From an uncultured virus (IMG/VR IMGVR_UViG_3300028115_001312) (lineage: Duplodnaviria > Heunggongvirae > Uroviricota > Caudoviricetes): a stretch of 20,000 nt of DNA. The stretch covers positions 55,430 through 75,429 of the IMG/VR virus record IMGVR_UViG_3300028115_001312; one strand, 5' to 3'. The notes under the pieces were generated by a model. It made no database searches. It saw only the letters and a program-made list of their open reading frames with translations, and had not been told where the DNA came from. Position 1 is the first letter of the stretch. Each line of letters opens with the position of its first letter. The translations under genes were made by a program, and so were the position numbers. Below are positions 3,034-15,274 of this stretch, in pieces.

Positions 3034-3471
3034 TTACTTGTTAATTGTAATTTTACGAGGCTTCTTCTCTTCTGGAACTATTCTTTCAAGTTCAATGAAA
3101 AGCATACCATTTTCAAGTTTAGCATCTTGAACAACGATATCATCATTTAGTGTAAACTTACGAGTAAACTTTCTACGTGAAATACCTCTGTGTAATATTT
3201 CACCAGCAAAGTTATTTTCATCAAGTTCTACTGGATTATGGCTAATTGTCATAACATTTTCTGCTACTTCAATGTCCAAGTCTTCCATTTTTACACCTGC
3301 TAGAGCCATTTCAATTTGAAATTTATCTCCGTCTCTTACAATGTTGTAAGGTGGATAGCCAGTACTCTGAGTCTGATGTTCAACATAGTTAAACATATTA
3401 TCAAAGATTCTGTCGAATCCGACGGCATATGGTGTAAGTTTATTGATATCGAGTGAGGTTAATCTTGTCAT
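3034..3471 (-). CDS. Small heat shock protein Hsp20 (IbpA-like)
   Basis: VGFDRIFD, YPPYNIV, IEMALAG, LHRGISRRKFTRKFTL, AKLENGML, IVPEEKKPRKITI; AAGGAG RBS. Confidence 0.95.
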   Translation of the reverse strand: MTRLTSLDINKLTPYAVGFDRIFDNMFNYVEHQTQSTGYPPYNIVRDGDKFQIEMALAGVKMEDLDIEVAENVMTISHNPVELDENNFAGEILHRGISRRKFTRKFTLNDDIVVQDAKLENGMLFIELERIVPEEKKPRKITINK

Positions 3472-3686: not shown

Positions 3687-3920
3687 CTAATAATTTTCTA
3701 TTTCACGTTGTTTTTTTAACCATCTGGCTCTACCCGCCGCTTTTGCTTTAGCACGTTTTTCGCTAGGCTTAACATAATACTTACGTTTCCTCATTTCTAA
3801 AATAATGCCTTCATCCTGCATTAATCTTTTTAGTTTGCGAATTGCACGAGAAACATCATTGTTTCTTACTTGGACATATAGTCCTTGTTTTTCTCTAGTT
3901 GGTCTTTGTGGTCTTGCCAT
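3687..3920 (-). CDS. rpsU: Ribosomal protein bS21, phage-encoded
   Basis: VQVRNNDVSRAIRKLKR...EGIILEMRKRKYYVKPSEKR matches the bS21 signature; small and basic. Confidence 0.9.
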   Translation of the reverse strand: MARPQRPTREKQGLYVQVRNNDVSRAIRKLKRLMQDEGIILEMRKRKYYVKPSEKRAKAKAAGRARWLKKQREIENY

Positions 3921-5132: not shown

Positions 5133-5440
5133 AACTTAAATTTAACTTCTTCTTGTTCTTGCTCTGTAAGATCATCTATTTCAATATGACCCTGTTTTAC
5201 CAACCAAGTAAGATGTGTTATGTAATCTTCATTTAAGTAAGTATCGGTTGTTTCTTTATCTAATTGCATCCAGTTTGAACCTGTCCAGCGAAATAATTTA
5301 TTAGGTAGTGCATCTACTCTTACAAACAAATCACCTTTATCAGGATACTTGGGAAAAGCAGTACCAAAGTCTGCTTGAGCCGCCTTTTCTAAATCCAGAT
5401 CCGCTACAACGGCTAAATTCGGGGTAGGGATCGTTATGCT
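5129..5440 (-). CDS. -1 frame C-terminal extension of the 5434..7197 protein (103 aa, SITIPTPNL...FGTAFPKYPDKGDLFVRVDALPNKLFRWTGSNW...)
   Basis: The frame of the 5129..5329 track ORF is open back through the A7 run at 5440-5446, with no ATG or strong RBS ahead of the track's TTG start. Confidence 0.7.
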   Translation of the reverse strand, partial: SITIPTPNLAVVADLDLEKAAQADFGTAFPKYPDKGDLFVRVDALPNKLFRWTGSNWMQLDKETTDTYLNEDYITHLTWLVKQGHIEIDDLTEQEQEEVKFKL

Positions 5441-5446
5441 TTTTTT
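5378..5446 (-). promoter_or_regulatory. Putative programmed -1 ribosomal frameshift signal (slippery heptamer plus H-type pseudoknot)
   Basis: A_AAA_AAA in the correct phase, 7-nt spacer, stem1 GAUCC-CUAC / GUAG-C-GGAUC, stem2 AGCCGUU / GGCGGCU. Confidence 0.75.
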
Positions 5447-7197
5447 GGCTCTTCAGGGGTTTCGGTGTTAGCTTCTGCTTCTAAACCTTGTGCAAATTCG
5501 TCTTTTTCAACTAATTGATACTTCTCTGCCATTTTAATAACAACTGCATCACGTCTTTCTATCTCTGCTTCCTGTTCAGCTATCTTCTTTAATAGTTCTT
5601 CTTCACGAGTTTTAAGACCTTCTGCACCTTGTGCTATTTCATCCAGTGTCTTTTTGTAGTTGTCACGTTCTGCTTCTGTTGCAACTACTTTATCAACTAG
5701 TGCATCACTTTCTGCTTTTGCTTCTGCGAGTTGTGCTTCTAAACCAGCAATTTTTTCTACTAGTTCATCACGTTCTTTTTGTAGTTCTGCAAACTTCGCA
5801 GGATCTACATTAGCAAGATTACCATCTAATAGTTTTTCTATTTCTGCTAAGACTTCATTATGTTTTTTAAGTTCCATTTCTAGTTCCTCTACTCTTGGAT
5901 CAGTAACTCTTACGATTTGTTCTTTTACTTTTGGTTTATTTTTTTGGCGGTCTTCTCTCCACCATCCTATTGTCATAGTACCTGCTAGTACTAAACAAAC
6001 TGCAAGTGGATCAAATACTGCAACAATAATTATAATAACCCAACGTACTGCATCTTCTAATAAGTTACGATCTGCTTCACCATATATAAGTTCTGCAATA
6101 TATTTTACAGGACCAACTTCAGCTTCAAACTGTCTATATTCTTTTTCAAATACAAACTTTTCTTCTCTTAATTTGTCTAACTCTGGTTGTACACTTTCTA
6201 TATTTTTTTCTAACTGTACAATCTTTTCATCTACACTATCATTAGTAGTACCTGCTTCTGTAGTATATTTTGCAATATTTGAATTTGCACTATCAATAGT
6301 GCCTTTTATACTGTCACGTATTTTTTGTATACGAACTTCTACTTGGTTAATTTGTTCAGCAAGTTTTTTGTTAATCTCTGTAATTTGTCTTTGTACTCTA
6401 CTTGCGACACCAATCTCATTTTGTTTTGCTTTTGCAATATCAGCATTAAGTTTATCACGTTCAGGCTTTTGTTCTTTACGTAATTGATTACCTTTTGCAA
6501 CATTATCTACATCAGCAGTAAACACACCACCCTTAGTTGTGCCTTGTTTTAAATATGCTTCAACATCTTTGTCCAGTACTGCTAAACGTTTTTCTGCTTG
6601 TGCTATGTCTGCCTTTGTACGATTCTGTGCATCACTTAATCGTTTGTTTTGTTGTGCAATTTCTTTATCTGCTTGTGCTTGTAGGCCAGGTATCTTCGCA
6701 TTTTCTGCATCTATTTGTGGTTGTATTCTATTGTTTGCTTCTTTAATACGATCACGTTCACGTTTTATTAATACATCTAATCTAGTGCTTGTTTCACCCT
6801 GGTTAAGTCTTTTAATATCTTCTGTCCAGCGATTGACTTTGGCTTGTATACGTGCCATCTTTTTGTCAATTACTTCAACTTGTGCAATTTGTTCTGTACC
6901 CATTGCACTTTGTTCAATATGGGACTTAGATAGGAAACCAAATACACCCATGCTTGTGATAAACATAAGAACAACTACTGCAATTACTAGATAACTTTTT
7001 ATTACCATAGGTGCACGATGCCAGTTTTGATGTAACCATACTGTTGCTAGTAGTTTACCTACTTCTAATACACTACCCATTAGGACAATTGGTAAGAAAG
7101 CCGCTGCAAATATTGCAGTAAGTCCAATAATACTATAATACGCAGCAATTATACTGATTGATATAGCAACAAATAATGTGAGGATACCTAAAAACAT
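5434..7197 (-). CDS. Membrane-anchored long coiled-coil protein
   Basis: N-terminal TM helices, a long heptad region, AEVGPVKYIAELIYG...AVRWVIIIIVAVFDPLAV TM segment and an acidic C-terminal coiled coil. Confidence 0.85.
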   Translation of the reverse strand: MFLGILTLFVAISISIIAAYYSIIGLTAIFAAAFLPIVLMGSVLEVGKLLATVWLHQNWHRAPMVIKSYLVIAVVVLMFITSMGVFGFLSKSHIEQSAMGTEQIAQVEVIDKKMARIQAKVNRWTEDIKRLNQGETSTRLDVLIKRERDRIKEANNRIQPQIDAENAKIPGLQAQADKEIAQQNKRLSDAQNRTKADIAQAEKRLAVLDKDVEAYLKQGTTKGGVFTADVDNVAKGNQLRKEQKPERDKLNADIAKAKQNEIGVASRVQRQITEINKKLAEQINQVEVRIQKIRDSIKGTIDSANSNIAKYTTEAGTTNDSVDEKIVQLEKNIESVQPELDKLREEKFVFEKEYRQFEAEVGPVKYIAELIYGEADRNLLEDAVRWVIIIIVAVFDPLAVCLVLAGTMTIGWWREDRQKNKPKVKEQIVRVTDPRVEELEMELKKHNEVLAEIEKLLDGNLANVDPAKFAELQKERDELVEKIAGLEAQLAEAKAESDALVDKVVATEAERDNYKKTLDEIAQGAEGLKTREEELLKKIAEQEAEIERRDAVVIKMAEKYQLVEKDEFAQGLEAEANTETPEEPKKA

Positions 7198-7203
7198 CTT
7201 TGT

Positions 7204-7233
7204 ATTATACTACCTTTAGCTTCTAATTGTCAA
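7204..7233 (-). promoter_or_regulatory. sigma70-type promoter
   Basis: TTGACA (7233-7228)-N18-TATAAT (7209-7204), with the ATG of the next gene only 6 nt downstream. Confidence 0.7.
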
Positions 7234-11894: not shown

Positions 11895-11924
11895 ATAATA
11901 ACACGAAGATTGTTATTGTCAACC
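11895..11924 (-). promoter_or_regulatory. sigma70-type promoter
   Basis: GGTTGACA-N16-TATTAT with GTGT immediately before the -10. Confidence 0.6.
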
Positions 11925-12367
11925 TATACAGTGACAATACCTTCTGAGATTAGACGCTCTCTATTCGCTAGATGTTGTGCTTGTACATCATCTTTAGATT
12001 GTCCGTGATATGGGACTGCATGACCTTCAGCAATCATAATTTCTGTAACAGGTTTCCAACTGTCTGTACTACTATCATAAACATCAAAGTCTCCTAAGAT
12101 ACGTCCAAACTTGCCTTTCATATCTTCGCCATCTTTGTTGATTTGTGTTTTTAGTGTACAAGTTTTGCCTAGTAATGATTTAAGCCTTGCTTTTGCTGCA
12201 AGTCCGAACTTCTTTTCTACTTTATCACGAGTTCTTGACTCTGGAGTATCTATGCCCATTATACGAACACGTTCGTCACTTAATACTATTCCGAAACCTA
12301 AATCTATGTCGACATCTACTGTGTCGCCGTCTACTACTTTAATTACCGTTGCTCTGTATTCATACAT
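11924..12367 (-). CDS. Thermonuclease (SNase-like)
   Basis: VVDGDTVDV, RVRIMGIDTPESRT, GKFGRILG; GAGGAG RBS and TAAATA at 12386-12395. Confidence 0.92.
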   Translation of the reverse strand: MYEYRATVIKVVDGDTVDVDIDLGFGIVLSDERVRIMGIDTPESRTRDKVEKKFGLAAKARLKSLLGKTCTLKTQINKDGEDMKGKFGRILGDFDVYDSSTDSWKPVTEIMIAEGHAVPYHGQSKDDVQAQHLANRERLISEGIVTV

Positions 12368-12392
12368 TGATTTTTCTCCTCAATGTATTTAT

Positions 12393-12986
12393 TTACAGGA
12401 GTAACATAGTTTCCTTATGCCATAGGTCATAAATTTGTTTCACATATTTTGGATAATATTCTACATCTAGTATACTTGCTAACTTTTCTATCTGTTCTAA
12501 AAATTGATTTTGATTAAGAATAGTTTTGAAGTCTATACTTTGTGTAGATCTAATAGTATTAAATGCTTCCAACTCTTTTGCAATTTGGCTACTATGATTT
12601 AAATCTGTACGTTTCTTTGAAGCAAGTTTTGTAATAGTTTCTATATCGTCTGTTTCTAAATTAATTTTTACAATATCTTTCCACTTTACATCACCATTCC
12701 AAAGGGTATCACAACCTGAAAAATATTGTAATGGATGACATCTATAAATTAATTTTTGTTGAGAATCTTCATGATGGTAAAACTCTCCAGCACCAGTAAC
12801 AAAATCTATCTCTATATCTACTTCACTTTTTGTCCAGTTTGTACTATCCCAATTATTATATAATGCAAATCTTTTTTGTGTAGTATCTGCATTTACATAA
12901 CCTACTGTATTTGTATCTAAAGTTAGACATCTTGCAAGTAAATTACCCGCACTTCCTTGTACATACACTATACATGCAGTCAACAT
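12393..12986 (-). CDS. Hypothetical protein, possibly sulfotransferase/P-loop-like
   Basis: N-terminal IVYVQGSAGNLLARCL resembles a strand-loop-helix phosphate-binding start; weak support. Confidence 0.5.
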   Translation of the reverse strand: MLTACIVYVQGSAGNLLARCLTLDTNTVGYVNADTTQKRFALYNNWDSTNWTKSEVDIEIDFVTGAGEFYHHEDSQQKLIYRCHPLQYFSGCDTLWNGDVKWKDIVKINLETDDIETITKLASKKRTDLNHSSQIAKELEAFNTIRSTQSIDFKTILNQNQFLEQIEKLASILDVEYYPKYVKQIYDLWHKETMLLL

Positions 12987-13105
12987 TTAGATTTTAGTTT
13001 GGCTCTGTTATATGAACCTTTACCCTTCTTAGATGCAACGACACGTGGCTTTAGTGTTCTAACCATTCGTGCTATAGGATTTCTTGTTTTAGGTTTACGT
13101 TTCAT
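12980..13105 (-). CDS. arfA: ArfA-like alternative ribosome rescue factor, 41 aa (MKRKPKTRNPIARMVRTLKPRVVASKKGKGSYNRAKLKSKC)
   Basis: Read manually. N-x-I..., RV and KKGKGSYxR match the ArfA core; it has its own promoter and overlaps the next gene's start. Confidence 0.75.
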   Translation of the reverse strand: MKRKPKTRNPIARMVRTLKPRVVASKKGKGSYNRAKLKSKC

Positions 13106-13112
13106 AACATCT

Positions 13113-13150
13113 TATTTATATACTAGTATAACTTATATGTCAACTAAATA
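13113..13150. promoter_or_regulatory. Divergent promoter region
   Basis: Minus strand: TTGACA (13143-13138)-N17-TATAAATA (13120-13113). Plus strand: TAAATA at 13145-13150. Confidence 0.65.
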
Positions 13151-13154
13151 TTAT

Positions 13155-13499
13155 ATGCTCAGTAAAATAAAAAAACGTTGGCGTGAGTGGCGTGAAAAAT
13201 GGACAGTGGATCATACTATTGACGTTATAGTAGATATAACATTATTACTAATAGACGTAATTGCTTCGCCAGTGTTAATTGTAGTAAGACTAGTAAGATA
13301 TGTTTTTGGAGAATGGATTGCAGATCGACTAAAATGGATAGTTAAAGCAATTGTACATTGGTATCAAAGACAACATCCTGTAGTCAAAAGACTAATAGTT
13401 ATACTTTTTCTTTTAGCACTTCCGTTTTTATTAATTATTCTGTGGAGTTTTAGTAGTATATGGACTATGTATTGGGAAATTACCTGGGGAGACAAATAA
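13155..13499 (+). CDS. Hypothetical membrane protein (start revised to MLSKIKKRW, 114 aa)
   Basis: ATG 4 nt after the plus-strand TAAATA and two hydrophobic segments. The upstream part of the track ORF is antisense to the ArfA-like gene. Confidence 0.7.
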   Translation: MLSKIKKRWREWREKWTVDHTIDVIVDITLLLIDVIASPVLIVVRLVRYVFGEWIADRLKWIVKAIVHWYQRQHPVVKRLIVILFLLALPFLLIILWSFSSIWTMYWEITWGDK

Positions 13500-13501
13500 G
13501 T

Positions 13502-15274
13502 TTACAAGTCTAACTCTGCTCGCCATCTTATATCAAAATCGTTAGCGACTTCTTTATTTTCCAATTCTTTTAGGTATGCTCTTAGATATTCTCCGCCTAC
13601 ATCACCGTCTTTTATTGCTTGATTAATCATACCTGTAATAATAGATTTTTTACCATCATCATTTATTGTACCACGTAACCCCATAATGAAGTTAAGTGCA
13701 TTGTCACTATAATCTGTTCTTATATCATAGTTCATATCTATCCGACTTTGGAAATCTTTTTCATCAAATATTTTTTTAAGTAATGTATCCCAACTATCAA
13801 TTGCAGTTTGTATATCTTCGTTTACATTACGTCTACTCATTAAGTTAGCACAGTCTGTTTCTATTTGTCCTATCTTAGCAGATTGATAACTAGCAAGTGT
13901 GGAACTATCTGGACCTTGTGGGATACTTATACCACTTGGATCTAATATAGTTGTTTCTGCTGGCACTGGTGGTGGCCCAGCACTAGCAGGAACAACAACT
14001 GTTGTATAAGCACCGCCCATTCCAGCTGCAAATTCTGTTAAATGTGTTTGTAATGTTGTTAGTTCACCTGCATCATACAATGCTTTCATAGCAGTCCTAT
14101 AATTACTTGCAGGTGTTTCTAATCCAACTGCACCCAGTGAACCTATCATATCAACAAGTGTAATGTTTTCATTAGGGCCTGTGCCACCTAAGAACTTTGC
14201 TACTAAACTATCAATATAGTCTCTTCTAACAAAATTTGTTATATTATCTATGGTGGGCAAATCTACTGTAGTTACACGACTTATATAGTTTGCTAATTGT
14301 GTAAGATTTTCCATTCTTCCAAGCTCTATTGCTTGAAGTTTTAAACGAAACTCTTCCATACTACTAAAGGTTATTATGTCTTTACTATTTTTAAAAATTT
14401 TATCAAAGTCTGTATAGTCACCTAGTTTTTCTAAATCAATATTAGTAACTAATAATGATTGTGCATTTGTAAGTAATGCAGGCACTGTAATCATATCTAG
14501 TAATTGTTGTACAAGTACATTGTATTGAGGATCTGCAATATTATATATAGTACTAGGATCTATGCCGACATTTGCCAAAACTTGAGATAAACCTGTCACT
14601 GCGACTGCATCTTTTGTATTAAGTGCTTGAATTACTTGTCCAGGATTTCCAAAGTTTGCTATATCTTGTAAATTAAATACAGTCCCTAAATTTGTAATAT
14701 CCTGTGCTAATAATGTAAAGTTTTCCTGTGATGCTTCTGTTACAAGTGTGCTAACTCCGTTTGTTACTACTGCTTGTAAATCTGGATATCCTTCACCTAG
14801 ATAATAGGGAAACACACCATCTTCAGGATATTCCAATGAGTCTGCATTAGGCAACTTACCAAATTCTATTCCGTTTCTAAGTTGCAATAAACTTGGTGCT
14901 ACACGTTTACTACTTGCTACTAAACTATTTGCAATAAAAAAAGTTTGTGCCATTTGTATTGGACTTGTGCCAAACATTAAATTTGCATGGGCACTTATTC
15001 TGTCCATACCTAAACCAGCACCTACTGTACTTGTGTATGTAGCAGGTACTGTTCCAGTAAATGCACCAGATCCACTTATGTCACGATTACATAATGTGTC
15101 TACTGAGCCTCCAGCCGCTTTTACATCAGCAGTCAATTGAATATGTCCGTTTGCCTCTGCTTTTGTAAGTGCTACGAGTTCTTTTGTGCCTTCTGTTAAA
15201 CCATTGCCATCTTCTAAGGCACCTGTTGCCATGCTACCCAGATAACTTATTGAACTACTTGAACCGTATGCCAT
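13502..15274 (-). CDS. Putative virion/baseplate-associated protein
   Basis: 590 aa, acidic and G/A/T-rich, coupled to the PAAR gene by a TAATG overlap. Confidence 0.65.
   Translation of the reverse strand: MAYGSSSSISYLGSMATGALEDGNGLTEGTKELVALTKAEANGHIQLTADVKAAGGSVDTLCNRDISGSGAFTGTVPATYTSTVGAGLGMDRISAHANLMFGTSPIQMAQTFFIANSLVASSKRVAPSLLQLRNGIEFGKLPNADSLEYPEDGVFPYYLGEGYPDLQAVVTNGVSTLVTEASQENFTLLAQDITNLGTVFNLQDIANFGNPGQVIQALNTKDAVAVTGLSQVLANVGIDPSTIYNIADPQYNVLVQQLLDMITVPALLTNAQSLLVTNIDLEKLGDYTDFDKIFKNSKDIITFSSMEEFRLKLQAIELGRMENLTQLANYISRVTTVDLPTIDNITNFVRRDYIDSLVAKFLGGTGPNENITLVDMIGSLGAVGLETPASNYRTAMKALYDAGELTTLQTHLTEFAAGMGGAYTTVVVPASAGPPPVPAETTILDPSGISIPQGPDSSTLASYQSAKIGQIETDCANLMSRRNVNEDIQTAIDSWDTLLKKIFDEKDFQSRIDMNYDIRTDYSDNALNFIMGLRGTINDDGKKSIITGMINQAIKDGDVGGEYLRAYLKELENKEVANDFDIRWRAELDL

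Follow-up and report, generated by a model that had tools for sequence, protein, structure and literature searches.

A 41-codon ArfA-like gene with its own stop codon in an uncultured T4-like marine phage and its proposed role in ribosome rescue

Does a phage gene of only 41 codons encode a factor that frees ribosomes in the manner of Escherichia coli ArfA? The question is raised by an open reading frame (ORF) in the IMG/VR virus record IMGVR_UViG_3300028115_001312, an uncultured member of the Caudoviricetes. The window, that is, the whole stretch of DNA analyzed, comprises 20,000 nt (record positions 55,430–75,429) and forms the final 20 kb of the 75,429-base record. A first-pass annotation had placed an ArfA-like rescue factor and its promoter at positions 12980–13143 of the window, a span that corresponds to the ORF (12980..13105, minus strand) plus the promoter motif upstream of it. 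Both the sequence and the ORF list confirmed a 41-aa frame at this place, with an ATG start and its own TGA stop. Its translation is MKRKPKTRNPIARMVRTLKPRVVASKKGKGSYNRAKLKSKC, which contains NPIA...KKGKGSYNR, and its TGA (12982–12980) overlaps the ATG (12986–12984) of the next minus-strand gene (12393..12986), which encodes 197 aa.

Conservation of the 41-codon frame

The ArfA-like ORF is a real gene, judged by its conserved frame, its low ratio of nonsynonymous to synonymous substitution (dN/dS) and the wide spread of its relatives. Nei-Gojobori comparison of the window ORF with 16 relatives over 34 codons gave dN/dS values of 0.12–0.49 in 16/16 pairs. A word-indexed search of 5.8 billion proteins revealed four close relatives of 41 aa (78–88% identity) and one fragment. 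The profile of the close relatives, run with HMMER against all of 1.84 billion representatives, revealed 77 proteins at E ≤ 1e-3, of which 72 were the same kind of protein, nearly all 25–102 aa in length, with one 211-aa fusion. The consensus of these 72 short-family members was RNPIAK..R...(L/F/Y)KPRVVKPKKGKGSY.RK; the other five matches were unrelated IVALRNEKGSYN-type repeats and were discarded. Relatives were encoded in at least 187 viral contigs among 586 candidate IMG/VR stretches, so that conservation in related phages, whose absence the first-pass annotation had named as refuting its claim, was found, in the spread of the gene as well as in dN/dS. A pattern search also detected relatives in 47 of 389 JGI metagenome candidate loci; of the 47, a script scored 44 as having an unbroken frame that includes the motif, the exceptions being L166, L170 and L171. 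The protein motif was kept across hundreds of loci with unrelated neighbours, and the start and the stop are conserved.

A chance open frame, with the region serving only as promoter or leader for the 197-aa gene, was considered as an alternative. As might be expected of such a frame, the ORF is short and rich in A+T, lacks a Shine-Dalgarno sequence and matched no family in an NCBIfam scan. This explanation is nevertheless already contradicted by the conservation data, since dN/dS was well below 1 in every pair, the motif, start and stop are conserved, and the ORF is kept in relatives that have no 197-aa gene. We regard it as scarcely credible. A PHROGs scan of the ORF gave weak matches at most (best E 0.042), megablast of 12300–13600 against GenBank phages gave no match, and tblastn of the 590-aa neighbour matched no phage record.

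Metatranscriptome contigs from 4/4 libraries covered 12626–13093, 12931–13081, 12799–13042 and 12793–13062, running from the ORF into the downstream gene; all four libraries were from salt marsh, possibly from one campaign, and may contain carried-over DNA. Positions 13094–13127 were covered in none of the four RNA runs, which carries no weight for the start of transcription.

Kinship with ArfA and the proposed rescue function

The Pfam ArfA model (PF03889) matched residues 19–35 of the window protein at 23.8 bits. The first-pass annotation had named this search as a check on its claim, and the outcome was divided: the E value of 3.1e-5 speaks for a match, and the score lies under the gathering cut-off of 25.5 bits. 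Close relatives scored 26.3 (P0002, 88% identical), 24.7 (P0003) and 22.8 bits (P0004), and other family members scored 26–43 bits, the more distant ones reaching 29–43 bits. An unannotated 50-aa ORF of Caulobacter phage Cr30, lying between two annotated genes (KF301602.1 11139-11291, corresponding to L002:2447-2599, minus strand), scored 27.2 bits, above the cut-off, and a "hypothetical protein" of Microcystis phage Mwe-JY26 scored 27.1 bits. When the family profile was searched against the PDB, the six best matches were all E. coli ArfA chains, at marginal E values of 0.06–0.17. Alignment of the 72-member family with a canonical ArfA set (11 sequences from E. coli and marine Gammaproteobacteria) by hhalign gave a probability of 98.1% and E 9.4e-14 over 42 columns, and paired window residues 7–41 with E. 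coli residues 12–53.

In alignment A4, N9 and L18 of the window protein corresponded to N14 and F25 of E. coli ArfA, P20-R-V-V23 to Q27-R-V-E30, and R34 to R41; K27-G-K-G-S-Y32 was identical to E. coli K34–Y39. Basic residues occupied four of the eight positions after the KGKGSY motif, and the 41-aa product ended at the position of E. coli residue 48. Published accounts of ArfA on the ribosome place a helix of residues 15–24 at the decoding centre, F25 in a hydrophobic pocket of release factor 2 (RF2), Q27–E30 as an additional strand on the RF2 beta-sheet, and the KGKGS tail in the vacant mRNA channel (PMC8012679, PMC6299226). One of these accounts describes only 46–48 ArfA residues as ordered on the ribosome and the last 17–18 encoded residues as dispensable (PMC8012679). 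The window protein has the size of this ordered part. At the sequence level, it has a hydrophobic residue at the F25 position, where the family consensus is L/F/Y, and a counterpart of the Q27–E30 strand. With counterparts of both the RF2-contact segment and the KGKGSY tail, both functional halves of ArfA are represented in the window protein. As judged from its sequence, the protein is an ArfA-family homologue; the identity given in the first-pass annotation was thereby borne out by hhalign, by the Pfam E value and by relatives that reach 43 bits.

The first-pass annotation overstated the novelty of a phage ArfA. In IMG, the name "stalled ribosome alternative rescue factor ArfA" is already given to a 41-aa protein that clusters with P0002 at 90% identity, and two phage papers annotate ArfA genes. 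The genes are gp30 of pelagiphage HTVC027P, described as highly expressed both early and late in infection (PMC12753301), and g10 of Citromicrobium phage RXM, so annotated in the account of that phage. Both resemble the window gene in being phage-borne and are described as carrying the PF03889 domain. The relatives that we examined in GenBank phage records were "hypothetical" or unannotated. The ArfA identity of the phage gene is therefore not new, and the window gene is one of many phage copies, in a family that is large (at least 187 viral contigs, 72 representative clusters) and mostly unnamed in cultured phage genomes.

The most likely function of the product, which we hold to be somewhat better than an even chance, is the release factor (RF)-dependent freeing of ribosomes from broken messages, by a factor that is not under tmRNA control. 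If the product works as E. coli ArfA does, its basic tail (K26-K-G-K-G-S-Y-N-R34 plus the lysines after it) would occupy the 30S mRNA entry channel solely in ribosomes in which that channel is empty, as expected once a ribosome has reached the 3' terminus of a broken mRNA. Host RF2 would gain an extra beta-sheet strand from L18-K-P-R-V-V23 and would then hydrolyse peptidyl-tRNA without a stop codon. Our estimate is no higher because the N-terminal part, which carries the activating residues in E. coli ArfA, is different here and because we infer ribosome binding, release-factor partner, rescue activity, expression timing and phage benefit alike. If the protein is active, phages bring their own back-up for freeing ribosomes at a time when infection destroys host messages and the host tmRNA system is likely saturated.

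Several observations weigh against this function. The Pfam score stays below the cut-off and its match is limited to the residues named above. Only eight residues precede the conserved Asn compared with 13 in E. coli, so that the N-terminus is five residues shorter, and the linker is two residues shorter than in E. coli ArfA, a deletion specific to the clade of the window. Within the activating motif N14-A15/A18-L19 of E. coli, the Asn is kept as N9, P10 replaces A15, and Arg13 stands at A18, an Ala that is invariant in the 11 canonical sequences. The short family has a near-invariant N-P-x-A (N9, P10 and A12 in the window protein), as opposed to the canonical N-A-x-x-A-L. Because the N-terminal motif differs, the partner or the mode of activation may differ from those of E. 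coli ArfA, although a one-residue shift in helix register could reconcile the two motifs. In addition, what the sources on HTVC027P gp30 and RXM g10 offer in this regard is annotation only, and the tree of the family, described below, gives no clear relation of the phage clade to the bacterial clades. Prediction of a complex between the window peptide (alignment A2) and the RF2 frame of SAR11 locus L181 gave a score of 0.01 against a mark of 0.32, which has no bearing either way.

The N-terminal half of the family was also found in other settings. The module RNPIAK..RTP.(F/Y)K..VV occurred with no KGKGSY tail in Acinetobacter phage Ac42 p003 (L184:689-808), and the same RNPIAK module, likewise tailless, occurred in pelagiphage HTVC115P gp18 (L185:701-961), where it continues into an acidic domain. 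Ac42 p003 matched Pfam DUF7230 (PF23876) at 51.6 bits, and the window ORF gave no match to this family at E ≤ 10. DUF7230 and the short ArfA-like family have the module RNPIAK.VRTP.FK..VVK in common, whereas DUF7230 members are without the KGKGSY tail. A 68-aa relative (L034) matched both families, with 28.7 bits for ArfA and 18 bits for DUF7230. Among 80 viral loci, 13 (L008, L009, L014, L015, L017-L020, L033, L035, L041, L042 and L062) encode fusion proteins of 142–260 aa that begin with the ArfA-like segment and have a long basic tail that ends ...GAPGQWSARKAQM.A.AYKKAGGGY....

These differences bear on whether an ArfA-type tail might bind the ribosome with no rescue following, the peptide acting as a modulator of host translation. 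Such a peptide could occupy the empty channel of vacant ribosomes, or could recruit a release factor without activating it, as does ArfA(A18T), whose substitution is described as blocking RF2 activation (PMC8012679); translation would then be biased to phage messages. Arg13 at the activation-critical Ala18 and the shorter, purely basic N-terminus fit this proposal. So does the tailless module of Ac42 p003 and HTVC115P gp18, which indicates that the two halves can be used separately. However, the strand that contacts RF2 is conserved, as is the hydrophobic position, and the retention of a like gene on SAR11 chromosomes, in a conserved housekeeping context, is a better fit to a beneficial rescue factor than to an inhibitor. 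We consider a modulator unlikely.

The same N-terminal divergence from canonical ArfA, together with the size and layout of the protein, recalls Francisella ArfT, and the product might be a rescue factor that works as ArfT does, recruiting RF1 as well as RF2, or one that makes contacts other than those of ArfA. ArfT is described as a 40-aa protein of similar size with a basic tail and its own stop, and with no regulation through non-stop mRNA (PMC6299226). Compared by this description, KKGGSTNKK takes the place of KGKGS in ArfT and the F25 position is not hydrophobic, and the same source considers ArfT independently evolved (PMC6299226). The sequence kinship of the window protein is with ArfA, its KGKGSY being identical and its L18 supplying the hydrophobic residue that ArfT, as described, lacks (PMC6299226). 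In our estimate, an ArfT-like mode has only a small chance of being correct, and RF2-dependent rescue of the ArfA type remains our preferred explanation.

Stop codon, hairpins and promoter

The first-pass annotation had also claimed that the gene has its own stop codon and that it would escape feedback. The first claim holds. Hairpins were scanned in 44-nt windows from the KGKGSY codons onward; the best local hairpin of the window locus (-11.2 kcal/mol) lay 3' of the stop, none in frame was above chance, and the whole ArfA region of the window folded no better than shuffles (z -0.51). In contrast, a hairpin of approximately 20 bp was detected within the frame of the E. coli arfA control (MG1655). 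This hairpin is reported to yield non-stop mRNA and to place ArfA under tmRNA control (PMC8012679). The window ORF thus had neither an in-frame hairpin nor an in-frame terminator of the kind expected for a non-stop mRNA. It also differs from E. coli arfA in its own stop codon, in having 41 codons as against 72, in being phage-borne and in its almost leaderless promoter.

Among 16 close phage loci, the best hairpins ranged from -7.0 to -12.4 kcal/mol, with inconsistent positions. The distant phage copies L006 and L029 had a strong in-frame hairpin, so that both layouts are present in phages. SAR11 loci had weak hairpins throughout (20/20, -4.7 to -10.7 kcal/mol). Strong hairpins before the stop were found in 5/6 Rhodospirillales-type loci (-21.0 to -26.2 kcal/mol) and in 6/13 gammaproteobacterial loci (-18.0 to -19.9 kcal/mol); in the remaining gammaproteobacterial loci, the best hairpin lay after the stop (5/13) or across it (2/13). 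Seven Pseudoalteromonas-type ArfA frames (L101, L106, L118-L121 and L168) ended in ...ESYLMAA, ...ESYLIAA or ...ESYPIAA, and five of them had a strong hairpin 3' of the stop. These endings resemble the end of the tmRNA tag.

With its own stop and no in-frame hairpin, the window product should escape the tmRNA tagging seen for E. coli ArfA, and it should therefore accumulate, untagged, once the gene is transcribed. The claimed escape from feedback is supported as far as the self-terminated layout is concerned, and is overstated as a trait specific to phages. SAR11 chromosomes carry copies of 37–38 aa with the same layout in a housekeeping context; the self-terminated layout is thus no phage invention.

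We examined the promoter in alignment A3, which comprises the window and five distinct relatives. Upstream of the gene on the minus strand, TTGACA (13143–13138) is followed after 17 nt by TATAAATA (13120–13113) and, 7 nt further on, by the ATG (13105). The -35 hexamer TTGACA (13138..13143) was invariant in 6/6 sequences and overlaps the ATG of the divergent plus-strand gene by 2 nt. Equally invariant was the block TAGTATATAAATA (13113..13125, minus strand), which holds the -10 sequence TATAAA and the TATAAATA octamer, at a fixed distance of 7 nt from the ATG. The 12 nt separating the two blocks varied. In L130 and L132, the sequence farther upstream was unrelated to that of the window, and TTGACA was still invariant. 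Invariant blocks amid varying spacers and flanks mark the footprint of a working promoter, and the alignment supports a conserved, host-type promoter of the sigma-70 type belonging to the ArfA-like gene. By itself the motif was not above chance, and its weight comes from the conservation in relatives. The site was absent from the output of a sigma-70 scan of the window, since the sixth base of TATAAA is not T. Five further TTGACA-N16-18-TAnAAT sites were found on the main coding strand of the record, which indicates that the phage uses host-type promoters.

The promoter had been proposed to be dual, serving also as a late motif. The sigma-70 half of this proposal agrees with the conservation described above, and the late half has no support. 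TATAAATA occurred once in the 20-kb window, as opposed to 4.88 expected occurrences, and six times in the 75-kb record, and a T4-type late promoter was rejected for this lack of enrichment. The 77 other ORFs of the record, which is only approximately 22% complete (CheckV), yielded no gene for a late sigma factor.

With the end of the -10 hexamer 9 nt ahead of the ATG and no Shine-Dalgarno sequence present, the transcript leader should be approximately 0–3 nt, making the message almost leaderless. Host RNA polymerase would transcribe the gene from TTGACA-N17-TATAAA, and the ArfA-like gene would head a minus-strand operon that continues with the 197-aa gene, the nuclease gene and a lysin-like gene. 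A similar arrangement was observed at 7195-7233 (minus strand), where TTGACA-N18-TATAAT stands 6 nt before the ATG of a 587-aa gene (5434..7197), which also looks leaderless. A perfect 12-bp palindrome, TATACTAGTATA, was found at 13119-13130 of the window and at 44093-44104 of record G000; these are exactly two copies in the 75-kb record, and both lie between divergent genes. Its role as an operator was rejected, as only the right half is conserved in relatives.

Bacterial copies, neighbouring genes and the phage

The family tree was built from 130 distinct core sequences and 36 columns, too few for deep forks. The window fell in a clade of 42 rows (SH-aLRT 96), all from viral or metagenome contigs; 21 SAR11 rows formed a separate clade (support 89), and seven gammaproteobacterial rows formed their own clade (support 99). 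A recent capture from SAR11 was therefore rejected as the origin of the phage gene.

The SAR11 copies (Pelagibacteraceae, among L087-L128, e.g., L092:1965-2081) are genes of 37–38 aa with their own stop and Pfam ArfA scores of 26.1–29.4 bits. They lie between response-regulator and PfkB kinase genes, in the same order in 7/7 loci examined, with YggS-like, YkuD, endonuclease III and DapB genes in the surroundings. They resemble the window gene in length, self-termination, weak hairpins and the pattern N..A+.L...(Y/F)K.R(I/V)(I/V)K.KKGKGSY.RK, and differ from it in being chromosomal, in belonging to a separate clade and in having a linker two residues longer. In Rhodospirillales-type metagenome-assembled genomes (L086, L096, L105, L114 and L126), ArfA had an in-frame hairpin of -21 to -26 kcal/mol, as in the non-stop layout of canonical arfA. 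Neither these loci nor those of SAR11 agree with Table 1 of a 2024 survey, in which arfA is counted in 0/2,376 Alphaproteobacteria (PMC11633108), and the chromosomal SAR11 copies bear on which bacteria possess an ArfA-type pathway.

We tentatively suggest, while holding the chances to be somewhat against it, that the short N-P-x-A ArfA-like proteins of phages, SAR11 and other marine Alphaproteobacteria may constitute an unrecognised, self-terminated branch of RF-dependent rescue with a different activation motif, outside tmRNA feedback. In that case, Alphaproteobacteria would possess an arfA after all, and a rescue factor made constitutively from early, almost leaderless messages would be supplied by phages, including to hosts reported to be without ArfA, such as Caulobacter, as the Cr30 ORF illustrates.

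Three genes surround the ArfA-like gene in the window. The 197-aa gene (12393..12986, minus strand), whose ATG overlaps the ArfA-like stop, had no Pfam or PHROG match. Beyond it lies a staphylococcal-nuclease-like gene (11924..12367, minus strand; Pfam SNase, 44.3 bits). On the other side, a divergent gene for a hydrophobic protein of 120 aa (13137..13499, plus strand) is separated by a 31-nt gap from the ArfA-like ATG; it matched no family and was conserved at 72–97% in relatives. The order in the close clade is a 590-aa gene, the divergent membrane-protein gene, and the ArfA-like, staphylococcal-nuclease-like and lysin-like genes. In the five distinct relatives, the ArfA-like frame is 52–54 aa and overlaps the start of the directly following nuclease gene by 25–34 nt; a sixth locus, L133, has an ORF identical to that of L132. 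Among close relatives, the 197-aa gene stands between the two genes only in the window and in the identical locus L129. This gene was apparently inserted recently, and the ArfA-like tail would have been shortened to 41 aa by it. In L130, L132 and L149, a 9-bp hairpin (-9.5 to -11.6 kcal/mol) is located approximately 50 to 9 nt before the ArfA-like stop and holds the GAGGAG and ATG of the nuclease gene that overlaps the frame. Through this hairpin, translation of the nuclease may be coupled to that of the ArfA-like frame.

Tblastn synteny and ORF ends revealed that the nuclease gene was linked to the ArfA-like gene in every close relative with downstream flank. As an association only, this link fits broken RNAs made by the phage as the source of substrate. 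The ribosomes might instead be stalled by host defence, whose nucleases or toxins cut mRNA or tRNA, the gene serving counter-defence by freeing the ribosomes so stalled and not those stalled by the phage's own degradation of host mRNA. The biochemical basis would be the same as in the explanation that we prefer. ArfA is also reported to rise in the DRT2 response that phage triggers in E. coli, which suggests that non-stop stress accompanies defence (PMC11100668). Yet no defence or anti-defence gene lies beside the ORF in the window, and the linked gene is a phage nuclease. Although the present data do not separate the two sources of broken mRNA, we consider a counter-defence role rather improbable and retain rescue after message degradation by the phage itself.

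By PHROG matches (clamp loader, baseplate wedge connector, PhoH, MazG and virion proteins), the phage appears to be a large T4-like marine myovirus. Its DNA was found in salt-marsh and marine metagenomes, and the G+C content of the record is 34.3%. No tmRNA was found in the 75-kb record. A release factor on the phage record was likewise rejected, the only candidate being a 13-bit RF-1 domain match interrupted by stops. ARAGORN detected three tRNA genes on the minus strand of record G000, Arg-ACG (13566-13642), Ser-ACT (30232-30320) and Thr-TGT (32031-32106). The window also encodes ribosomal protein S21 (3687-3920, minus strand; Pfam, 57.6 bits) and an Hsp20 chaperone (3034-3471, minus strand). 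The ArfA-like gene is thus not the sole translation-related cargo, and, if active, it would join phage-borne parts of translation such as this S21 gene.

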